A stretch of 64,000 nt of DNA from Nitrospirota bacterium (lineage in GTDB: Bacteria > Nitrospirota > Nitrospiria > Nitrospirales > Nitrospiraceae): the NCBI GenBank assembly GCA_963701855.1, contig CAVPBK010000006.1:992001-1056000 (forward strand). Direction: 5' to 3'. This document shows, one piece after another, positions 2,286-12,392 of this stretch; within the stretch, counting starts at the first letter, position 1, and every line of letters begins with the position of its first letter. Under the pieces are notes generated by a model. The model was given only the letters and a program-made list of their open reading frames with translations. It made no database searches and was not told the DNA's origin. A program made the translations under genes and the position numbers.

Positions 2286-3062
2286 ATGGCAAAGATTGTA
2301 GCGATTGCAAATCAGAAGGGTGGTGTGGGAAAGACTACAACCGCCGTGAATCTTTCCGCTGGTGTCGCACTCCTTGGTAAGCGCGTCTTGCTTGTGGATA
2401 TTGATCCGCAAGGAAACGCCACGAGCGGATTAGGAGTTGACCCCCGTTCCTTACAGACTACCGTATATAACTGCCTAATTAATTATGTGAAATTTCATGA
2501 CGCTGTGCAAGTCACAGAAGTGAACGGTTTGTCGCTTTTGCCGGCAAATGCTGATTTGTCTGGGGCAGAAATCGAGCTAGTGAACGTTGAAGAGCGGGAA
2601 AAATTGCTTCGGAATTTCTTGCGAGATGTTGATCAGTTATTCGACGTGATTTTTCTCGACTGTCCTCCTACCTTGGGGATTCTGACGGTGAATGCACTCG
2701 TTGCAGCTCGCAGCGTTTTAGTCCCGGTTCAATGTGAATACTATGCCATGGAAGGGTTAAGTCGGTTGGTTGGAAACATCGATCGAGTTCGTCAGTCATT
2801 TAATCCCGAGCTCCAATTGGAAGGGATCGTCTTGACAATGTTCGACGCACGGAATACGTTGGCACGTCAAGTTGCAGAGCAAGTTCGCGAGCATTTCAAA
2901 GAGGTCGTCTACAGCACCGTAATCCCCCGCAATGTCACACTGGCGGAGGCTCCAAGTTACGGACGTCCGGCCATGTTATATAACGTCGCATCAGCAGGAT
3001 CTCAGGCCTATTTGTCCTTAGCCAAGGAGTTTGTGAGCCATGGAGAAAAAAGCGCTCGGTAG
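2286..3062 (+). CDS. parA: Chromosome partitioning ATPase ParA/Soj
   Basis: Deviant Walker A NQKGGVGKTT, DIDPQGNAT, DCPP, IPRNVTLAEAPS. Confidence 0.97.
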   Translation: MAKIVAIANQKGGVGKTTTAVNLSAGVALLGKRVLLVDIDPQGNATSGLGVDPRSLQTTVYNCLINYVKFHDAVQVTEVNGLSLLPANADLSGAEIELVNVEEREKLLRNFLRDVDQLFDVIFLDCPPTLGILTVNALVAARSVLVPVQCEYYAMEGLSRLVGNIDRVRQSFNPELQLEGIVLTMFDARNTLARQVAEQVREHFKEVVYSTVIPRNVTLAEAPSYGRPAMLYNVASAGSQAYLSLAKEFVSHGEKSAR

Positions 3063-3888
3063 AGGACTCGACGCATTGCTGCCTGCAATCAAACCCGTGC
3101 CGATGCCGGAGCTGCCTGAAGTCCAACTTCTGCGGGTCGATGCCATCGTGCCGAATCGGTATCAGCCGAGACAAACATTCTCTCCTCATGAGCTGGCAGA
3201 ACTTACAGCCTCATTGAAGCAAAATGGATTGCTGCAGCCAATATTAGTTCGCCGCAAAGGCGACGGAATCTACGAACTCATCTCCGGTGAACGGCGTTGG
3301 CGCGCGTCAAAAGAGGCGGGACTGGAAACGATTCAAGCCGTCATTCGTAATTGCGGAGACGAAGAGTCTGTCGTCCTGGCACTGATAGAAAATCTTCAAC
3401 GCGAAGATCTTAATCCAATGGAAATGGCTAGGGCCTATCATCGGATGATGAACGAATTTGGACTCACTCAGGACATAATTGCGCGACGAGTTGACTGCGA
3501 TCGGTCGTCGATTGCCAATATTGTACGTCTTATCAATCTTCCTCTAGAGATCCAACAGCTCATTGAAACCGATAAAATCTCTATGGGACATGCAAAAGTA
3601 ATTCTCGGTCTTCCTGACCAGAATAACCAGCTTAGAGTCGCCCAGCTGGTGGTCTCAAAAGCCTTATCGGTGAGAGAGACGGAAAAACTCTTAGAATCAT
3701 CACCAGCCGCAAAGAGGCGAGGGGCAAAGGAATTACGACGAACACCATGGTCTGATGTTGAAGAACGATTGCAAAAACGATTCGGCACCAAAGTCGTGAT
3801 CCAAAAAGGAAGACGGGGAGGAAAAATCGTCATTCATTTTTTTTCTTCGCCCGAACTCGATGGAATTCTCGAGACGCTTCTTAACTAA
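3040..3888 (+). CDS. parB: Chromosome partitioning protein ParB/Spo0J
   Basis: LGRGLDALL, NRYQPR, GERRWRA, IENLQREDL. Confidence 0.97.
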   Translation: MEKKALGRGLDALLPAIKPVPMPELPEVQLLRVDAIVPNRYQPRQTFSPHELAELTASLKQNGLLQPILVRRKGDGIYELISGERRWRASKEAGLETIQAVIRNCGDEESVVLALIENLQREDLNPMEMARAYHRMMNEFGLTQDIIARRVDCDRSSIANIVRLINLPLEIQQLIETDKISMGHAKVILGLPDQNNQLRVAQLVVSKALSVRETEKLLESSPAAKRRGAKELRRTPWSDVEERLQKRFGTKVVIQKGRRGGKIVIHFFSSPELDGILETLLN

Positions 3889-4046
3889 TCCGGACCATAC
3901 CCCTGTCTCCCAGACATCATAAGAGGTGGAGGTATACTTGTTGCTTCTACGTATTCGTAACCATGCTCCTTCTGATCGATTACTTTCCATAACCGCATCA
4001 CAACTGCGATGAAATAGTGGAATTGCCGACTCAAGGAGACACATTC

Positions 4047-4541
4047 ATGTGGGGGCAGGAAAAAAAAGAAGAGATGAACTCACCCGAGCAGGGAGGCGAA
4101 AAGGTGACCATAGTCGCTGCCAGCTCAATTGCCGACGGGGCCGGAGATATTAACGCCTTTGTGGGAAAGGGCGTTGAGTTCAAAGGCACGATCTCCTATA
4201 GTGGAACGGTAAGAATCGATGGATATCTCGACGGAGAAATTCATACTGATGGCATGCTAATCGTCGGTGAAGATGCTATCATCCAGGCAAAAATCACCGC
4301 TGGGACGATTGTGTCTAAAGGAAAGATCACCGGGGAAGTCGTTGCAAAAGAGTGCATCAAGCTCCGAGCCCCGGCCGTCATGAATGGGAACGTCAAGTCG
4401 CCGGTCCTTTCAATGGAAGATGGGGTTCTGTTCAATGGTGCACTTGAAATGGCTCACGGCGTGCGTGAGCTCCCTCGAGACACCTCTCTACATCCCGTCG
4501 GATTGATCATGCCCCCTGGCATTAAACGAGCCAATGGTTAG
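4047..4541 (+). CDS. Bactofilin (polymer-forming cytoskeletal protein)
   Basis: GKGVEFKGTISYSGTVRIDG...G beta-helix repeats; AAGGAG RBS before ATG 4047. Confidence 0.9.
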   Translation: MWGQEKKEEMNSPEQGGEKVTIVAASSIADGAGDINAFVGKGVEFKGTISYSGTVRIDGYLDGEIHTDGMLIVGEDAIIQAKITAGTIVSKGKITGEVVAKECIKLRAPAVMNGNVKSPVLSMEDGVLFNGALEMAHGVRELPRDTSLHPVGLIMPPGIKRANG

Positions 4542-4616
4542 GGGAAAATATTAACATTTAGGTATTTATCCTGCACATTGTTGATGCGGGAGGATATTTT
4601 TAGGGGGGGGGCGACC

Positions 4617-5042
4617 ATGTGGGCAACGAAAGACCGGGGCCATCAAGCCGAACAGAGCAGCGATAATATTACGCTCCTGGGGAAGGGTGTGGACTTCAAG
4701 GGCGTCGTGAGTTTTGATGGCACCGTCCGGATTGATGGACACGTTGATGGCGAGATATATATAACCGGAACGTTAATTGTTGGAGAGCACGCCGTGATCG
4801 AGGGCATCGTGTCAGCTGGTGTGCTTATGAATAGCGGCAAGATCAATGGTACCATCACTGCCATTGAAAAGATTCATATTCTTAAGCCCGGAGTTCTTGT
4901 CGGCGATATCCGAACCCCAGTCATTGCGATCGAAGAAGGCTCTCGCTTCCATGGCATGTGTGACATGGGTGCGCATCATTGGAGCGGCGAACGCGCCCTC
5001 TCGGTCAACGTGGCTCCAAGCCTTGTTGCATCCGCCCATTAG
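4617..5042 (+). CDS. Bactofilin paralog
   Basis: GKGVDFKGVVSFDGTVRIDG...IEEGSRFHGMC; paralog of the preceding gene. Confidence 0.9.
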   Translation: MWATKDRGHQAEQSSDNITLLGKGVDFKGVVSFDGTVRIDGHVDGEIYITGTLIVGEHAVIEGIVSAGVLMNSGKINGTITAIEKIHILKPGVLVGDIRTPVIAIEEGSRFHGMCDMGAHHWSGERALSVNVAPSLVASAH

Positions 5043-5098
5043 CTGCAGGGAACAACCCTCTAGCCCTTTTCCTGTCTCCTCAGTACAATAGCGACTAT

Positions 5099-6181
5099 AT
5101 GGTTCGCCCTACAGTTCTCCTTGGCATGAGCGGTGGAGTGGATAGCTCTGTCGCCGCAGCGCTCCTGGTTCGCCAGGGTTACGACGTTCATGGCGTCACG
5201 CTTCAGGTCTGGGAGCATGAAGACGAAACAGTCGCGGTCTCTAAGCGCTGGGAAGAACGTGGCTGCTGTAAAGTCGGTATTGCTCGGTACGTCGCGCAGA
5301 CTTTGAGAATTCCGCATGAGGTGATCGACACCAGAGAGACCTTTCGTGCCGGCGTGATCGACGATTTTGTTGCCGGCTACCTCGAAGGCACAACGCCCAA
5401 CCCCTGTGTCCGATGCAATGAGCGCGTCAAACTTCGGAGTCTCTTAGAGCTTGCCGATGCACGGAGGGTCGATTTTGTCGCCACTGGCCACTATGCTCGC
5501 CTCGGGGAATCCGATGGGCTGCCGACTCTCCAGCGAGCAGCCGATTCCAAGAAAGATCAAAGCTATTTCCTTTATCGGCTTCGTCAGTCATGGCTCAGTC
5601 GCCTTATTTTTCCTGTGGGTGGCATGCAGAAGACGGACGTCTGGATGGAAGCAGAGACCTTGGGCCTTCCCACAGATGAATTGAAGGAAAGCCAAGAAAT
5701 CTGTTTCGTGAGCCACGGCGATTATCGAACCTTTATCGAGAAGGAAGCGCCTGCAGCCAAGAAGCCAGGGGCCTTTGTGGACGATGAAGGACGATATTTA
5801 GGTAACCATGATGGGGTTGCCTTTTATACGCCAGGCCAACGACGAGGCCTCGGCATATCGGCTGGCCGCAGACTCTATGTTCAACAAGTACAGCCTGCGA
5901 CCAATACTGTCGTCCTTGGAGCAGAAGAATCTCTGCGTCGCGGTCAATGCGATGTCGCGGATCTAAATCTCTTTGATTCCTCGCTGCTTAGTGGATCAAC
6001 GGACGTCGAGGTTAAAGTCCGGCATGCAACACCTGCCACGCCTGCGACCGTCCAATCTCGCTCAGACGGTACTCTCCATATTGTCTTTGGTGAGCCACAA
6101 CGCGCATTAAGCCCGGGACAATCGGCCGTTTTCTATCGAAACGACCGCGTGCTGGGCGGCGGCATCATCCAATCACTCTAA
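5099..6181 (+). CDS. mnmA: tRNA-specific 2-thiouridylase MnmA
   Basis: MSGGVDSS, TPNPCVRCN, ATGHY, KDQSYFL, YTPGQRRGL, PGQSAVFY. Confidence 0.96.
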   Translation: MVRPTVLLGMSGGVDSSVAAALLVRQGYDVHGVTLQVWEHEDETVAVSKRWEERGCCKVGIARYVAQTLRIPHEVIDTRETFRAGVIDDFVAGYLEGTTPNPCVRCNERVKLRSLLELADARRVDFVATGHYARLGESDGLPTLQRAADSKKDQSYFLYRLRQSWLSRLIFPVGGMQKTDVWMEAETLGLPTDELKESQEICFVSHGDYRTFIEKEAPAAKKPGAFVDDEGRYLGNHDGVAFYTPGQRRGLGISAGRRLYVQQVQPATNTVVLGAEESLRRGQCDVADLNLFDSSLLSGSTDVEVKVRHATPATPATVQSRSDGTLHIVFGEPQRALSPGQSAVFYRNDRVLGGGIIQSL

Positions 6182-6182
6182 C

Positions 6183-6303
6183 AGGATACTGAAAAAGTCA
6201 CTCTTCTCACCCGCTCGGCCCCTGCGCGCCGAGACGTGCCTTTTCCCATGCGGCATTCCCACTTCGCTCAGAGGCCTTGCTGGACGACATTTTTGAGCAT
6301 CCT
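6183..6303. repeat. MITE/REP-like intergenic element with terminal inverted repeats
   Basis: Left AGGATACTGAAAAAGTC vs reverse complement of right end AGGATGCTCAAAAATGTC; ~120 bp, non-coding. Confidence 0.65.
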
Positions 6304-6417
6304 ACGCGATATTTTTCTATTACTTTTTATTACCTTCAACGTGTGGACCATTAAGTTTCTACCGTACCACTATAGTTTGTTCAGACTCCTAGTTTCGTCA
6401 TCATCCACACCGTCATA

Positions 6418-6447
6418 TTGACAGCCCTCCTCCGCCAATGCTAGCTT
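6418..6447 (+). promoter_or_regulatory. Putative sigma70 promoter of the F1 atp operon
   Basis: TTGACA-N18-TAGCTT with extended -10 TG, ~70 bp before atpH. Confidence 0.6.
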
Positions 6448-6519
6448 GTCGCGCCGCTTTTCGTGCGAGCCACGAAGGCTTCTATCTTTGTCAAAATAAA
6501 GAGTGAACGGACCTCTATA

Positions 6520-7059
6520 GTGATTAAGAAAGCAGTGGCGCGACGTTATGCACAGGCATTATTCGAGCTACTCGACCAAACCACCATTGAACAAACCCGC
6601 GTGGCCTTAACGGGGTTGGGTCAAGCGATCAAGGATTCGGTCGCATTGCGCCATGTTGTGGCCTCACCGGTTTTTGGCGTCGAAGACAAAATTGCCGTCC
6701 TTGCAGAACTCGGTTCACGTTTGGGGTGCCCCCCAGTCGGAAAAACATTTCTCGAACAGTTAGTGAAGAAAAATCGCGTCGGCTTTCTCCCTGAAATCGC
6801 CGAGGCCTTCGCGAAACTTGCCGACGCGTCGAAAGGCACCCAGCAAGTCACCGTATTCTCCGCGATTGCCATACCTCAGGACGAACAAGGTCAAATCAGC
6901 AATCGCTTGCGCACAATACTCAAGCGCCAAGTCGATGTCACCTTTCACACGGATGCCCGCTATCTCGCCGGCATGCAGATCCGTCTCGGCAACACCGTGG
7001 TCGATAGCACCGTGCTGGGGCGGCTACAAGCAATGCGGAGTTTGTTGACTAAGGAGTAG
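6520..7059 (+). CDS. atpH: ATP synthase F1 subunit delta
   Basis: [11 protein letters not shown]-terminus, [15 protein letters not shown]-terminus, upstream of atpA. Confidence 0.93.
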
Positions 7060-7061
7060 CT

Positions 7062-8579
7062 ATGCAGATCAAGGCAGAAGAAATCAGTTCGATTATCAAA
7101 GAGAAAATCAAAGGCTTCGACAAACAAGTCGATGTCAAGGAAACGGGTTCGGTCATTCAGGTTGGAGACGGCATTGCCAAAGTCTATGGTCTTGACGGCG
7201 CAATGGCCGGCGAAATGCTCGAATTCCCCGGCGGTCTCTACGGGATCGCGCTGAATCTTGAAGAAGACAATGTCGGCGCCGTACTCATGGGCGATGATGT
7301 CGGAGTCAAGGAAGGCGATCCGGTCAAGCGCACGGGACGTATTGCGGAGATTCCGGTCGGCGAAGCATTGCTCGGTCGTGTGGTGAACGCGATTGGGCAA
7401 CCTATCGATGGAAAGGGCCCGATCAAATCGTCGCTCTCGTCCCGCATAGAAGTCACTGCACCAGGGGTGAATACACGTCAGTCGGTGCGCGAACCCCTGC
7501 AAACGGGTATCAAGGCCATCGACGCCATGATTCCCATTGGCCGCGGGCAGCGTGAGTTGATTATCGGCGACCGGCAGACCGGCAAAACCGCCATTGCCGT
7601 CGATACGATTATCAACCAAAAGGGCCTCAACGTCTTTTGTATCTATGTCGCCATCGGCCAGAAACGGTCAACCGTGGCACGAGTCGTCAAAACTCTCGAA
7701 GAGACCCACGCGATGGATTACAGCATCGTGGTGGCGGCCACCGCGAGCGATGCGGCTCCCATGCAGTACCTTGCGCCTTTCTCCGGTGCAGCCATCGGCG
7801 AGTACTTCCGGGATAACGGCAAACATGCGTTGATCGTTTATGACGATCTCTCCAAGCACGCCGTGGCCTATCGTCAGTTATCGTTGTTGCTACGTCGCCC
7901 TCCAGGCCGCGAAGCTTATCCGGGCGACGTGTTCTATCTGCACTCCCGGTTGTTGGAGCGTGCAGCCAAACTCAGCGACAAACTCGGCGGTGGAAGCCTC
8001 ACGGCACTGCCGATCATTGAAACACAAGCCGGTGACGTGTCCGCCTACATTCCGACCAACGTCATTTCGATCACCGACGGGCAGATCTATCTTGCCAGTG
8101 ATCTGTTCTACTCCGGTATTCGTCCCGCGATTAACGTGGGTCTGTCGGTCTCCCGCGTCGGGGGTTCGGCCCAGATCAAAACCATGAAGCAAGTGGCTGG
8201 CACCCTTCGGCTCGACCTCGCGCAGTACCGAGAAATGGCCGCGTTCTCCCAATTCGGCAGCGAGCTCGACAAATCGACACAGAGGCAGCTTGCGCGCGGC
8301 GTTCGAATGGTGGAGTTGCTTAAGCAGGGGCAATACAAACCGATGCCGGTCGCCGATCAAGTGCTGTCGATATACGCAGGTGTCAACGGATACCTGGATG
8401 ATGTACCCGTCGATTCAGTGCTCCAGTTCGAATCCGATCTGCTGCACTACGTCCAGCAGAACCATCCCGAGTTAAAAAAGGAAATCGCGAGCATCGGGAA
8501 AATCGACGACGCGGTCGCCGGAAGAATGAAAGAGATTATCACGACCTTTAAACAAAAGATGGGGTTCGGCGCCAAGTAG
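7062..8579 (+). CDS. atpA: ATP synthase F1 subunit alpha
   Basis: [30 protein letters not shown]. Confidence 0.99.
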
Positions 8580-8643
8580 CCATCAACGCGGCGACGGTGG
8601 CCTTCGGCTTAGAGTTGAAGACCAATTACCGAACGAAGCAACA

Positions 8644-8881
8644 ATGCCGCGTCTTTAATCGCTACGCCTTGAAATTGCTCGTTTAAGAATAGACAAAATA
8701 TTACCAAGGCCCTGAAGATGGCGGCGGCGGAATATGGCGCCCGGATGGGGCCGGTGGACGGCGCGACGAGGAACGCAGGACAACTGATCAAGAAAGTGAC
8801 CTGCTTTACAACAAGACCCGTCAGACCGCCATTACCAAAGAATTGATGGACATCGTCGGCGGTGCAGAGACGCTACGGTAG
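8644..8881 (+). pseudogene. atpG: Internally deleted, frameshifted ATP synthase gamma subunit relic
   Basis: Reads MPRL*SLRLEIA(fs)FKNRQNITKALKMAAA|EYGARMGPVDGATRNAGQLIKKVT(fs)YNKTRQTAITKELMDIVGGAETLR*, i.e. the N- and C-terminal helices of gamma fused, at the canonical position between atpA and atpD. Confidence 0.92.
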
Positions 8882-8906
8882 ATTGGAAGTTTTGAGCGCT
8901 GAGTAA

Positions 8907-10418
<1,512 letters not shown>

Positions 10419-10526
10419 GCAGCGCGGGTGCTCGCAGACCGCGCATGATGAAACAATGCTCGGTCGATGCGCGCACGTCAGAGCATCCGGCCTGTTTACA
10501 CCTTTTGATGAGCACGTAGGAGAGAT

Positions 10527-10949
10527 ATGGCAGGAAAGATATTATTAGAAGTGGTGACGCCGGAGAAGTTGCTCTTGAGCCAGCAGGTGGATGAGGTCAT
10601 CGCACCAGGCTCAGAGGGTGAGTTCGGCGTGTTGCCGGGACACTGTCATTTCCTTTCTACATTACGCATCGGTGAGCTTCGCTATCGCATTGGCGACCAG
10701 ACCAACCACATGGCGGTCCTCTGGGGCTATGCGGAGGTCACACCAACCAAAGTGACGATCATGGCCGAGATCGCCGAGAAGGCCGAAGATATCGATGTGG
10801 GCCGCGCCCAAGCCGCCGTTGAGAAGGCCGAACAGCGCCTGAAGGCCGGCGGCCTGCCGTCCGAACTCAAAGAAGCTGAAATCAGTCTAGAAAAAGCCCG
10901 CCTCCGCAAGAAGATCGTCAACCGCGCCGGCAAAAACGGCCACGCCTGA
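10527..10949 (+). CDS. atpC: ATP synthase F1 subunit epsilon
   Basis: LEVVTPE, GEFGVLPGH, AEDIDV. Confidence 0.96.
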   Translation: MAGKILLEVVTPEKLLLSQQVDEVIAPGSEGEFGVLPGHCHFLSTLRIGELRYRIGDQTNHMAVLWGYAEVTPTKVTIMAEIAEKAEDIDVGRAQAAVEKAEQRLKAGGLPSELKEAEISLEKARLRKKIVNRAGKNGHA

Positions 10950-11070
10950 TTTTCAAAGCTTTCCACATCTCCACATACACCATGACTGGTCCTTGGTATG
11001 ACCAAGAGGGAAGACCGGTTCTTGGGGCATGCGGAATGATGGAAAACGATCACTCTTGGTAATCCATCGT

Positions 11071-12213
11071 CTAGTGTAGTGTATCAGTAATATCTTTACA
11101 GTGCTGGTCGGGTCTGGTAGCATCCACGGTATGTGGACTCCCCCCGACGCGTTGCGTATGACGGTCGAACAGAAACAGACGTTGGGCGCGTGGATTCGGG
11201 CGAAGGCCACCCCCCAGAGGATCGTCCTGCGGTCGCGGATTTGCCTGCTGGCGGCCGAGGGGATTGCCACTACCGCCATTGCCCAGCGCTTGGAAACCTC
11301 GCGTCCGACCGTGCGGCTGTGGCGGAATCGGTTCACCGAGGCGGGACCTTCGGGTCTGTCCGAGGATGCCCCGCATGGTCCCAGTGCCCAACGCTTGTCG
11401 CCCCGGAAAGTCTGGGCCATCGTGGAGGCCACCCTGCAGACCACGCCGCCCGACGCGACCCACTGGAGCACGCGGACGATGGCGAACGCGCAGGGGGTCA
11501 GCCATGTCAGCGTGGCGCGAATCTGGGACGCGCACGGCTTGAAACCGCACCGGAGCAAAACCTTCAAGTTGTCGACCGACCAGCGGTTTGTCGAGACGTT
11601 GACGGACGTGCTCGGCGTCTACCTCAACCCTCCGGACAAGGCGCTGGTGCTCTGCGTGGATGAAAAATCGCAGGTGCAGGCGTTGGACCGGACGCAACCG
11701 GGCTTGCCGATGAAGAAGGGGCGCTGCGGCACCATGACGCACGACTACAAGCGCCACGGGACCACCTGTCTGTTCGCGGCGCTCAATGTGCTGGACGGCA
11801 CCGTGATCGGCACCTGTTACCCGCGGCACCGCCACGAGGAGTTTCTGAAGTTCCTGCGCACCATTGACCGAGACACGCCGCATGGGGTGGCCCTCCACTT
11901 GATCCTGGACAACTACGGGACACACAACCACCCCCAGGTGAAGACGTGGCTGGAGAAGCATCCACGATTCCACCTGCACGTTACCCCAACGAGTGCCTCG
12001 TGGCTGAATCTGGTCGAACGATGGTTCGGGGAGATCACGCGGAAGCGCATCCGACGCGGCGTCTTCAAGAGCGTGCCGGAACTGGTCGCAGCCATCGACG
12101 AGTTCACTCGACTCACGAACAAGAACCCCAAGCCGTTCGTGTGGACCAAAACAGTCAAAGACATTCTGACGAAGATCAAGCATTGTAAAGCCGTTATTGA
12201 GACAGAACACTAG
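11071..12213 (+). mobile_element. IS630-family insertion sequence, apparently intact
   Basis: 33-bp imperfect TIRs (CTAGTGTAGTGTATCAGTAATATCTTTACAGTG / CTAGTGTTCTGTCTCAATAACGGCTTTACAATG, 25/33), CTAG at both ends (TA-type target). Confidence 0.93.
11131..12213 (+). CDS. IS630-family DDE transposase
   Basis: HTH N-terminus, VDEKS, THDYKRHGT, LDNY, SWLNLVERWF. Confidence 0.95.
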   Translation: MWTPPDALRMTVEQKQTLGAWIRAKATPQRIVLRSRICLLAAEGIATTAIAQRLETSRPTVRLWRNRFTEAGPSGLSEDAPHGPSAQRLSPRKVWAIVEATLQTTPPDATHWSTRTMANAQGVSHVSVARIWDAHGLKPHRSKTFKLSTDQRFVETLTDVLGVYLNPPDKALVLCVDEKSQVQALDRTQPGLPMKKGRCGTMTHDYKRHGTTCLFAALNVLDGTVIGTCYPRHRHEEFLKFLRTIDRDTPHGVALHLILDNYGTHNHPQVKTWLEKHPRFHLHVTPTSASWLNLVERWFGEITRKRIRRGVFKSVPELVAAIDEFTRLTNKNPKPFVWTKTVKDILTKIKHCKAVIETEH

Positions 12214-12392
12214 GAGCCTGTCCGACATTGCCTTCGTGACGAGGCGAAGAAGGCACAACCAGATAAAAGGCGAGATTGGAAGAACCGGAGCATATTCGAT
12301 GGAATAGGTTAAGGAGCCTTCATGGCCGAGCACGACGCAGCCGGTCGCGGATCGTTCATCGCAATAGAACGGTCAATGTCGGAGAGGCTCCT
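12212..12392. mobile_element. MITE-like element abutting the IS630
   Basis: 19-bp TIRs AGGAGCCTGTCCGACATTG / CAATGTCGGAGAGGCTCCT (18/19), ~180 bp, non-coding. Confidence 0.75.

Follow-up and report, generated by a model that had tools for sequence, protein, structure and literature searches.

Remains of the gamma subunit gene in an ATP synthase operon of the Nitrospirales, and its most likely replacement by a divergent stand-alone gamma

In the ATP synthase the coupling of Fo to F1 falls to a single subunit, gamma, a protein of approximately 290 amino acids, and few gene orders in bacteria are as conserved as atpA-atpG-atpD. The stretch of DNA analysed here (64,000 nucleotides of the draft genome of a Nitrospirota bacterium, a soil Nitrospira, hereafter the window; the genome is designated G000) holds an F1 operon in which this order is broken, and the questions that it raises are what became of the operon gamma gene and which rotor the F1 encoded there now uses. 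A sequence-only reading of the window had proposed that the gene is a decayed relic and that the cell turns to a relocated or xenologous atpG, for example one borrowed from an N-type ATPase operon. The features of the window on which the argument turns are as follows.

6463 to 7059, plus strand: atpH (delta/OSCP), intact; PF00213, 130 bits, profile positions 1-171 of 172
7062 to 8579, plus strand: atpA (alpha), intact, 505 amino acids; PF00006, PF00306 and PF02874
8644 to 8881, plus strand: remnant of the in-operon type ('o-type') atpG; PF00231, tblastn and alignment to relatives
8644 to 8646, plus strand: start ATG of the remnant; three-frame reading
8656 to 8658, plus strand: nonsense codon TAA of the remnant, at codon 5; three-frame reading
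8678/8679, plus strand: first -1 frameshift of the remnant; three-frame reading
approximately 8720 to 8729, plus strand: in-frame internal deletion junction of the remnant, where the N-helix end abuts the C-helix start; alignment
8801/8802, plus strand: second -1 frameshift of the remnant; three-frame reading
8879 to 8881, plus strand: original stop TAG of the remnant; three-frame reading
8882 to 8975, plus strand: old atpG-atpD intergenic spacer including the atpD ribosome-binding region; alignment, most relatives keeping this spacer
8976 to 10418, plus strand: atpD (beta), intact, 480 amino acids; Pfam
10527 to 10949, plus strand: atpC (epsilon), intact; PF02823 and PF00401

The flanking delta, alpha, beta and epsilon genes are full length, as had been proposed: in a Pfam search of the window atpH, atpA, atpD and atpC were matched end to end by their models, and atpD has 96-99% identity to most of its full-length orthologues in the genus. 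The slot between atpA and atpD had been put at only about 240 bp; the spacer in fact measures 396 bp (8580-8975), with no open reading frame of note inside it, and the 238 bp at 8644-8881 are the remnant itself. In this remnant codons 1 to approximately 29, from the N-helix, are fused to codons approximately 240 to 292, from the C-helix, and approximately 210 codons, comprising the entire globular domain, are absent. Three-frame reading bears out the two-helix relic with its early TAA and its two frameshifts, and PF00231 and tblastn show its likeness to gamma to be more than chance. The PF00231 matches cover only the C-terminal part, at 33.5 bits (E 1e-7, profile positions 259-285) and 16.6 bits (profile positions 231-260), both below the curated cut-off of 39.9 bits, and tblastn with the intact gamma found elsewhere in the genome aligns with E 3e-17 and 66-83% identity across the C-helix. 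There is neither a full-length PF00231 match nor an uninterrupted frame of approximately 290 codons, and the position, between atpA and atpD, is that of the gene in relatives. The C-helix residues are of the in-operon type and not of the stand-alone type described below, which shows that the relic arose by decay at its own site and not by copying of the stand-alone gene. It bears the marks of a unitary pseudogene: the frame is disabled, relatives have an intact orthologue at this position, and substitutions show no bias among codon positions. The predicted RNA fold of 8875-8985 was no better than that of shuffled sequences (z 0.25), a promoter and terminator scan gave no match within 8882-8975, and neither over 6200-11300 nor at the stand-alone locus did these scans return more sites than in shuffled sequence. 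Immediately upstream of the F1 operon, at 2286-6181 of the window, lie parA, parB, two bactofilin genes and mnmA; in the relative G042 (L016), too, atpH is preceded by the bactofilin pair and mnmA.

A locus of this kind invites the suspicion of an assembly or sequencing artefact that conceals a full atpG, particularly in a draft genome of 15 contigs and with one relative, G042, whose record is interrupted by a run of N in the same operon. Contigs from public sequencing runs of three different studies nevertheless cover the remnant and bridge atpA into atpD with no differing letter and no gap: 8348-9006 in run X1 (record 3), 8200-9081 in run X2 (record 17), and 8425-8587 together with 8581-9049 in run X3 (records 21 and 22). 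One of these runs is possibly the source sample of the assembly, the others being independent. An exact match in three runs of three studies means that the deletion is not an assembly slip, and the same deletion is found in seven separately assembled species genomes, with other deletions in eight more, so that the probability left to an artefact is practically nil. A related strain present in runs X1 and X15 carries one extra T behind 8801, and the second frameshift is therefore specific to the lineage of G000.

Comparison with sister genomes places the lesion in a wider setting. The genus set comprised 85 species genomes, 80 of them with an F-type atpD. In the canonical state, tallied by eye from the tables for 55 genomes, a full-length gamma match of 867 nt lies beside atpD on the same contig, and in the five such genomes that were fetched the atpA-atpD spacer measures 1025-1040 bp. 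The operon lacks a whole atpG in 13 of the 85 genomes, with spacers of 156-504 bp. The deleted state was found in 15 species overall, namely G000 and 14 others, 12 of which belong to the genus set, and its forms are these.

G000, G015, G069, G091, G090, G094 and G018: spacers of 383-504 bp; common helix-to-helix junction
G095: spacer of 272 bp; different junction, keeping residues that the others lack and lacking residues that they keep
G081: spacer of 312 bp; third junction type
G054: spacer of 188 bp; shorter remains
G089 and G092: spacers of 156 and 166 bp; final codons only
G012: spacer of 227 bp; shorter remains, with a faint C-terminal trace
G102 and G103, outside the genus set: spacers of approximately 105 and 58 bp; no remnant left

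The residue content of the G095 junction is incompatible with that of the main group, and G095 therefore represents an independent deletion; at least two junctions, the G015 type and the G095 type, are not derivable from one another. The remaining genomes of the genus set were left unplaced on account of contig breaks, a missing atpD, the run of N in G042 or the frameshifts in G093. Several apparent intermediates were set aside. The 'half gamma' of G042 is an assembly gap mimicking a gene fusion, in which a run of N (L016, approximately 2460-2560) takes up all of atpA together with most of atpH and half of atpG; partial matches in G008, G006 and G009 lie at contig ends; and the frameshifted operon gamma of G093 was not taken as an intermediate stage because the adjoining atpD is frameshifted too. 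In a single-gene FastTree of atpA nucleotide sequences G045, whose gamma gene is full length, falls inside the deletion clade, and the tree was therefore used only for the observation that G089 and G092, and likewise G095, lie apart from the main group.

An explanation of the main deletion is suggested by the gamma gene of G045, which is intact. The same 8-bp string, coding for a run of alanines, occurs in both its N-helix and its C-helix, and the common junction falls exactly there and in frame, which points to a founding deletion between short direct repeats. Such an event would have removed the approximately 210 codons of the globular domain in a single in-frame step, after which the leftover would have drifted neutrally, gaining in G000 the nonsense codon and two 1-bp deletions. 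All seven remnants with the common junction are disabled, each differently: nonsense codons stand at different places in G000, G018 and G091, the start codon is lost in G015 and G094, and differing 1-bp indels are present in G000, G069, G090 and G091. Some single-base indels in drafts of few contigs are perhaps errors, an explanation that does not extend to the stop-codon substitutions or to the run-confirmed lesions of G000. Pairwise differences at the three codon positions are 0.154, 0.111 and 0.142 among the seven remnants, as against 0.049, 0.011 and 0.271 at the same codons of 26 intact genes. Different lesions and change spread evenly over codon positions together mean that the remnants drift neutrally as pseudogenes.

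The same observations bear on the idea that the remnant is alive and gives rise to a mini-gamma consisting of the coiled coil alone, or to some other functional small peptide or RNA. The founding deletion was in frame, the C-helix part persists in nine species, and open frames are found in G015 (spacer L007, one frame of 82 codons, the ATG and the region before it being lost) and in G095 (spacer L013, an ATG-started frame of 63 codons left by the independent deletion). Contigs of an RNA run, X15, cover parts of atpA, the C-terminal part of the remnant (8733-8896) and atpD; they come from related strains and, as contigs that give neither strand nor level, are a weak point in its favour. Against these stand the stop at codon 5 and the two shifts of G000, the separate disablement of every common-junction genome, the even spread of substitutions, the disappearance of nearly all of the remnant from G054, G089, G092, G102 and G103, and the want of an RNA fold signal. 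A gamma without its globular domain, moreover, could not hold epsilon or the c-ring in the F1Fo structure, and a living remnant is accordingly considered very unlikely.

That the pseudogenization was real and not recent, as the sequence-only reading had maintained, is upheld by the sharing of one junction among seven species whose atpA genes differ by dS values of up to approximately 0.5. Among deletion carriers atpA has a dN/dS of 0.045 (45 pairs), with dS values of up to 0.57 against G000. Constraint on atpA at such distances indicates that the operon is still in use and that the deletion is old.

A whole-genome search with PF00231, in an assembly estimated to be 97% complete, recovered two full-length gammas. 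One belongs to the N-type ATPase operon treated below; the other is a gene standing outside the atp operon.

C9, 299191 to 300093: stand-alone gamma, intact, 300 amino acids; PF00231, 324 bits, profile positions 1-285 of 285

This protein is approximately 61% identical to the 292-residue in-operon type and 29% identical to the N-type gamma. Its neighbours in G000 are a BON-domain gene, a porin gene and unassigned genes, with no partner atp genes among them, and its gene context varies between species. The predicted model (pLDDT 85.3) has the long terminal helices (N-helix 4-57, C-helix 224-299) and the alpha/beta globular domain of the gamma fold, together with a disordered extra loop at 199-213; it superimposes on solved gamma chains, such as 9its_G, with TM scores of 0.87-0.90, and the best 50 matches listed are ATP synthase gamma chains. 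The gene is constrained, less tightly than its in-operon counterparts (dN/dS 0.09-0.13 versus 0.04), at a similar median dS among orthologues (0.57, and 0.65 for in-operon genes), and its GC3 of 0.68 is like that of atpA and atpD. Between genomes with and without the operon copy its dN/dS does not differ (0.089 and 0.090, respectively). The approximately 39% of residues that distinguish it from the operon type lie mostly in the globular domain, which is in contact with epsilon and the c-ring, and its fit to these partners is assumed here.

Several smaller observations concern the stand-alone locus. Three dispersed repeat families flank the gene (L005 9075-9236, 9822-10009 and 11101-11230), with approximately 10, 19 and 25 copies in G000 and dozens in relatives; the 188-bp repeat ends in inverted sequences of 19 nt, as a miniature transposable element would, and one repeat copy lies in the window at 12209-12392 on the minus strand, inside an unassigned open reading frame (11071-12333, minus strand). 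Just downstream of the gamma, an unassigned protein that looks secreted is encoded by two tandem paralogues, and between them is a 24-nt piece (L005 12346-12369) identical at 23 of 24 positions to the region coding for the gamma N-helix, perhaps left by a tandem duplication of the gamma and its neighbour.

In a tree of 42 gammas the stand-alone sequences form a clade with SH-aLRT support of 99, apart from the in-operon clade (99), and in a tree of 46 rows including other phyla the stand-alone gamma lies within the Nitrospirales gamma clade (support 99) on a long stem; both are quick trees with SH-aLRT support. This placement identifies it as an old Nitrospirales paralogue or as the product of a transfer within the order, and as neither an other-phylum nor an N-type gamma. 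The proposal of a relocated or xenologous atpG thus stands insofar as an intact gamma is encoded elsewhere in the genome, and needs correcting in its example of an N-type operon as donor, which is unlikely: the N-type gamma is only 29% identical and has a complete operon of its own. The likely donor is instead the divergent Nitrospirales paralogue.

The N-type operon is nonetheless an evident alternative source of a rotor.

G000:C1, locus L006, 10277 to 17242: N-type ATPase operon, complete, with beta, epsilon, gene1/AtpQ, AtpR, a, c, b, alpha and gamma

The N-type operon order with AtpR (PF12966) was found at this locus only, and the stand-alone gamma is no part of it; a P-type cation ATPase gene adjoins the operon. 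The genome has a single alpha/beta pair of the F type and a single one of the N type, and no second F1 operon is present in it. That the N-type gamma serves both enzymes, acting also as rotor of the operon F1, could draw on the completeness of this operon and on G018, which has two N-type operons and in which no stand-alone gamma was found. It is held to be highly improbable: the N-type gamma shares only the 29% identity noted above with the stand-alone protein and sits in a self-sufficient operon, G000 possesses an intact and constrained F-type gamma, and in four of the seven genomes without a stand-alone gamma (G015, G090, G091 and G092) no N-type gamma was found either, so that an N-type donor is not the general answer. 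Still less probable is that the whole F-type enzyme is being abandoned for the N-type ATPase and that the gamma remnant is the first visible step, a course with which the presence of the N-type operon and frameshifts in other atp genes of relatives (atpA in G090 and G092, atpD in G093) would agree. Strong purifying selection acts on atpA across the deletion carriers, however, and most of these carriers lack an N-type gamma; in G000 the delta, alpha, beta and epsilon genes are intact, as are the Fo genes (gene1, a, c and b) at a third locus, C1 at approximately 29-31.5 kb; and the frameshifts of the relatives occur in drafts of 2 to approximately 30 contigs, where single-base errors would be plausible.

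The reading preferred here is that 8644-8881 is a unitary pseudogene, the in situ remains of the ancestral in-operon gamma, and that the divergent stand-alone gamma most likely replaces it, an account that we regard as having a high probability overall. The loss would have been tolerated because the lineage already had this second gamma, the 'stand-alone type' of 298-300 amino acids, which would now most likely supply the rotor for the delta, alpha, beta and epsilon of the operon and the Fo encoded on C1. Since F1 operon, Fo and rotor gene lie at separate places, the enzyme would be encoded at three loci, with the rotor transcribed apart from the alpha and beta genes. The stand-alone gamma would assemble with the operon F1, and separate control of its expression, envisaged in the sequence-only reading as one outcome, would be a reasonable expectation.

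The distribution of the two gammas among relatives is relevant to this replacement. The stand-alone gene is intact in nine genomes of the genus (G000, G011, G023, G054, G068, G088, G089, G093 and G099), bears one single-base indel in each of four more (G003, G087, G094 and G095; L037, L038, L035 and L036, respectively), at four different sites, and is carried by five further species beyond the genus list. These four indels represent either real decay or sequencing errors; those of G094 and G095 are 1-bp insertions at non-homologous sites, in genomes with no other F-type gamma left. Both gammas are intact in G023, G068, G088, G099 and G104, the stand-alone copy bears an indel beside an intact operon copy in G003 and G087, and the stand-alone gene is the sole F-type gamma, the operon copy being gone, in G000, G054, G089, G102 and G103. 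This is the pattern that would be expected of redundancy between two paralogues resolved in either direction. A third, more divergent gamma occurs in G012 (L039; G012:C54, 2570-3433; 288 amino acids), 62% identical to the G000 stand-alone protein and on a long branch, at a locus syntenic with the stand-alone locus of G000.

Among the 15 species in which the operon no longer has a whole gamma, six thus have an intact ectopic one (G000, G054, G089, G102, G103 and, with the divergent form, G012), two (G094 and G095) have it with the insertion, and in the draft genomes of seven (G015, G018, G069, G081, G090, G091 and G092) no full-length F-type gamma was found. The stand-alone gene is often on short contigs and has the dispersed repeats at its sides, and in G069 a contig breaks off 207 bp short of the gene found after gamma in G000, exactly where gamma would lie. 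The region of approximately 48 kb around the stand-alone gamma of G000 is present as a whole in G094 and gave no match in G015, G018, G090 and G091, and G018 is rated 99% complete, yet no stand-alone gamma was detected in its sequence as searched, which covers all but 947 bases. Draft incompleteness accounts for part of the missing gammas, and some lineages may have another solution.

A more far-reaching possibility joins these observations. The stand-alone gamma could be a functionally distinct rotor isoform, with its own transcription unit, a strongly diverged globular domain and the loop at 199-213, that arose early in the Nitrospirales, is found together with the housekeeping gamma in certain soil Nitrospira and has displaced it on at least two to four separate occasions. 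This is put forward tentatively, and on present evidence appears rather doubtful; were it true, the stoichiometry and regulation of the F1Fo rotor would be uncoupled from the alpha and beta genes. As an extreme case, lineages such as G015 and G018 might be running their F1 with a foreign, N-type rotor.

Partial parallels exist among known systems. The plant chloroplast ATP synthase has two divergent nuclear gamma isoforms, atpC1 and atpC2, which are able to serve one F1 and are regulated differently; the likeness lies in the pair of divergent paralogues, but that system is eukaryotic and keeps both, whereas here one copy has been lost in many lineages. Single-molecule work of the 2000s and 2010s on engineered F1 with truncated gamma rotors has explored what a partial gamma can do inside alpha3beta3; those constructs lost the shaft, whereas the founding deletion described here took the globular foot and kept the shaft, in a product that is no longer encoded. 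Ectopic duplicates of the F1 gamma are described in Aquifex aeolicus and Acidithiobacillus ferrooxidans (Koumandou and Kossida, 2014; PMC4154653), where, as here, a second gamma is encoded away from the atp locus; one of these duplicates is very divergent, and one may be a pseudogene; loss of the main-locus copy is not reported in the text available from that study, while in the present group it is the operon copy that decayed repeatedly and the ectopic one that remains. In the Nitrospirales themselves N-type ATPases (Dibrova et al., 2010, as cited in PMC12342949) are encoded by operons in 18% of genomes, and the available text of this comparative study of 2025, which describes N-type and V/A-type ATPases beside the F-type, makes no mention of gamma (PMC12342949). 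Such operons resemble the present case in that the genome holds another rotary ATPase equipped with a gamma of its own, but the stand-alone gamma groups with the F-type gammas of the Nitrospirales, has no partner genes and is only distantly similar to the N-type protein. A search of the literature, covering article texts and in part passages of these, found no report of an operon gamma copy being replaced.

The sequence-only reading holds in substance. The case is one of displacement of one paralogue by another within a highly conserved operon and has recurred in a single genus, but it adds no new kind of system. Widespread soil nitrifiers have lost the operon gamma by deletion several times and, so far as can be judged from the data, rely on an old divergent paralogue in its stead. 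Such genomes will be marked by annotation pipelines and completeness scores as having an incomplete F-type ATPase, when the enzyme is probably complete. The group offers a natural series in which to follow how an essential single-copy subunit of a molecular machine is replaced, and in which to ask whether rotor isoforms may tune the regulation of the ATP synthase.
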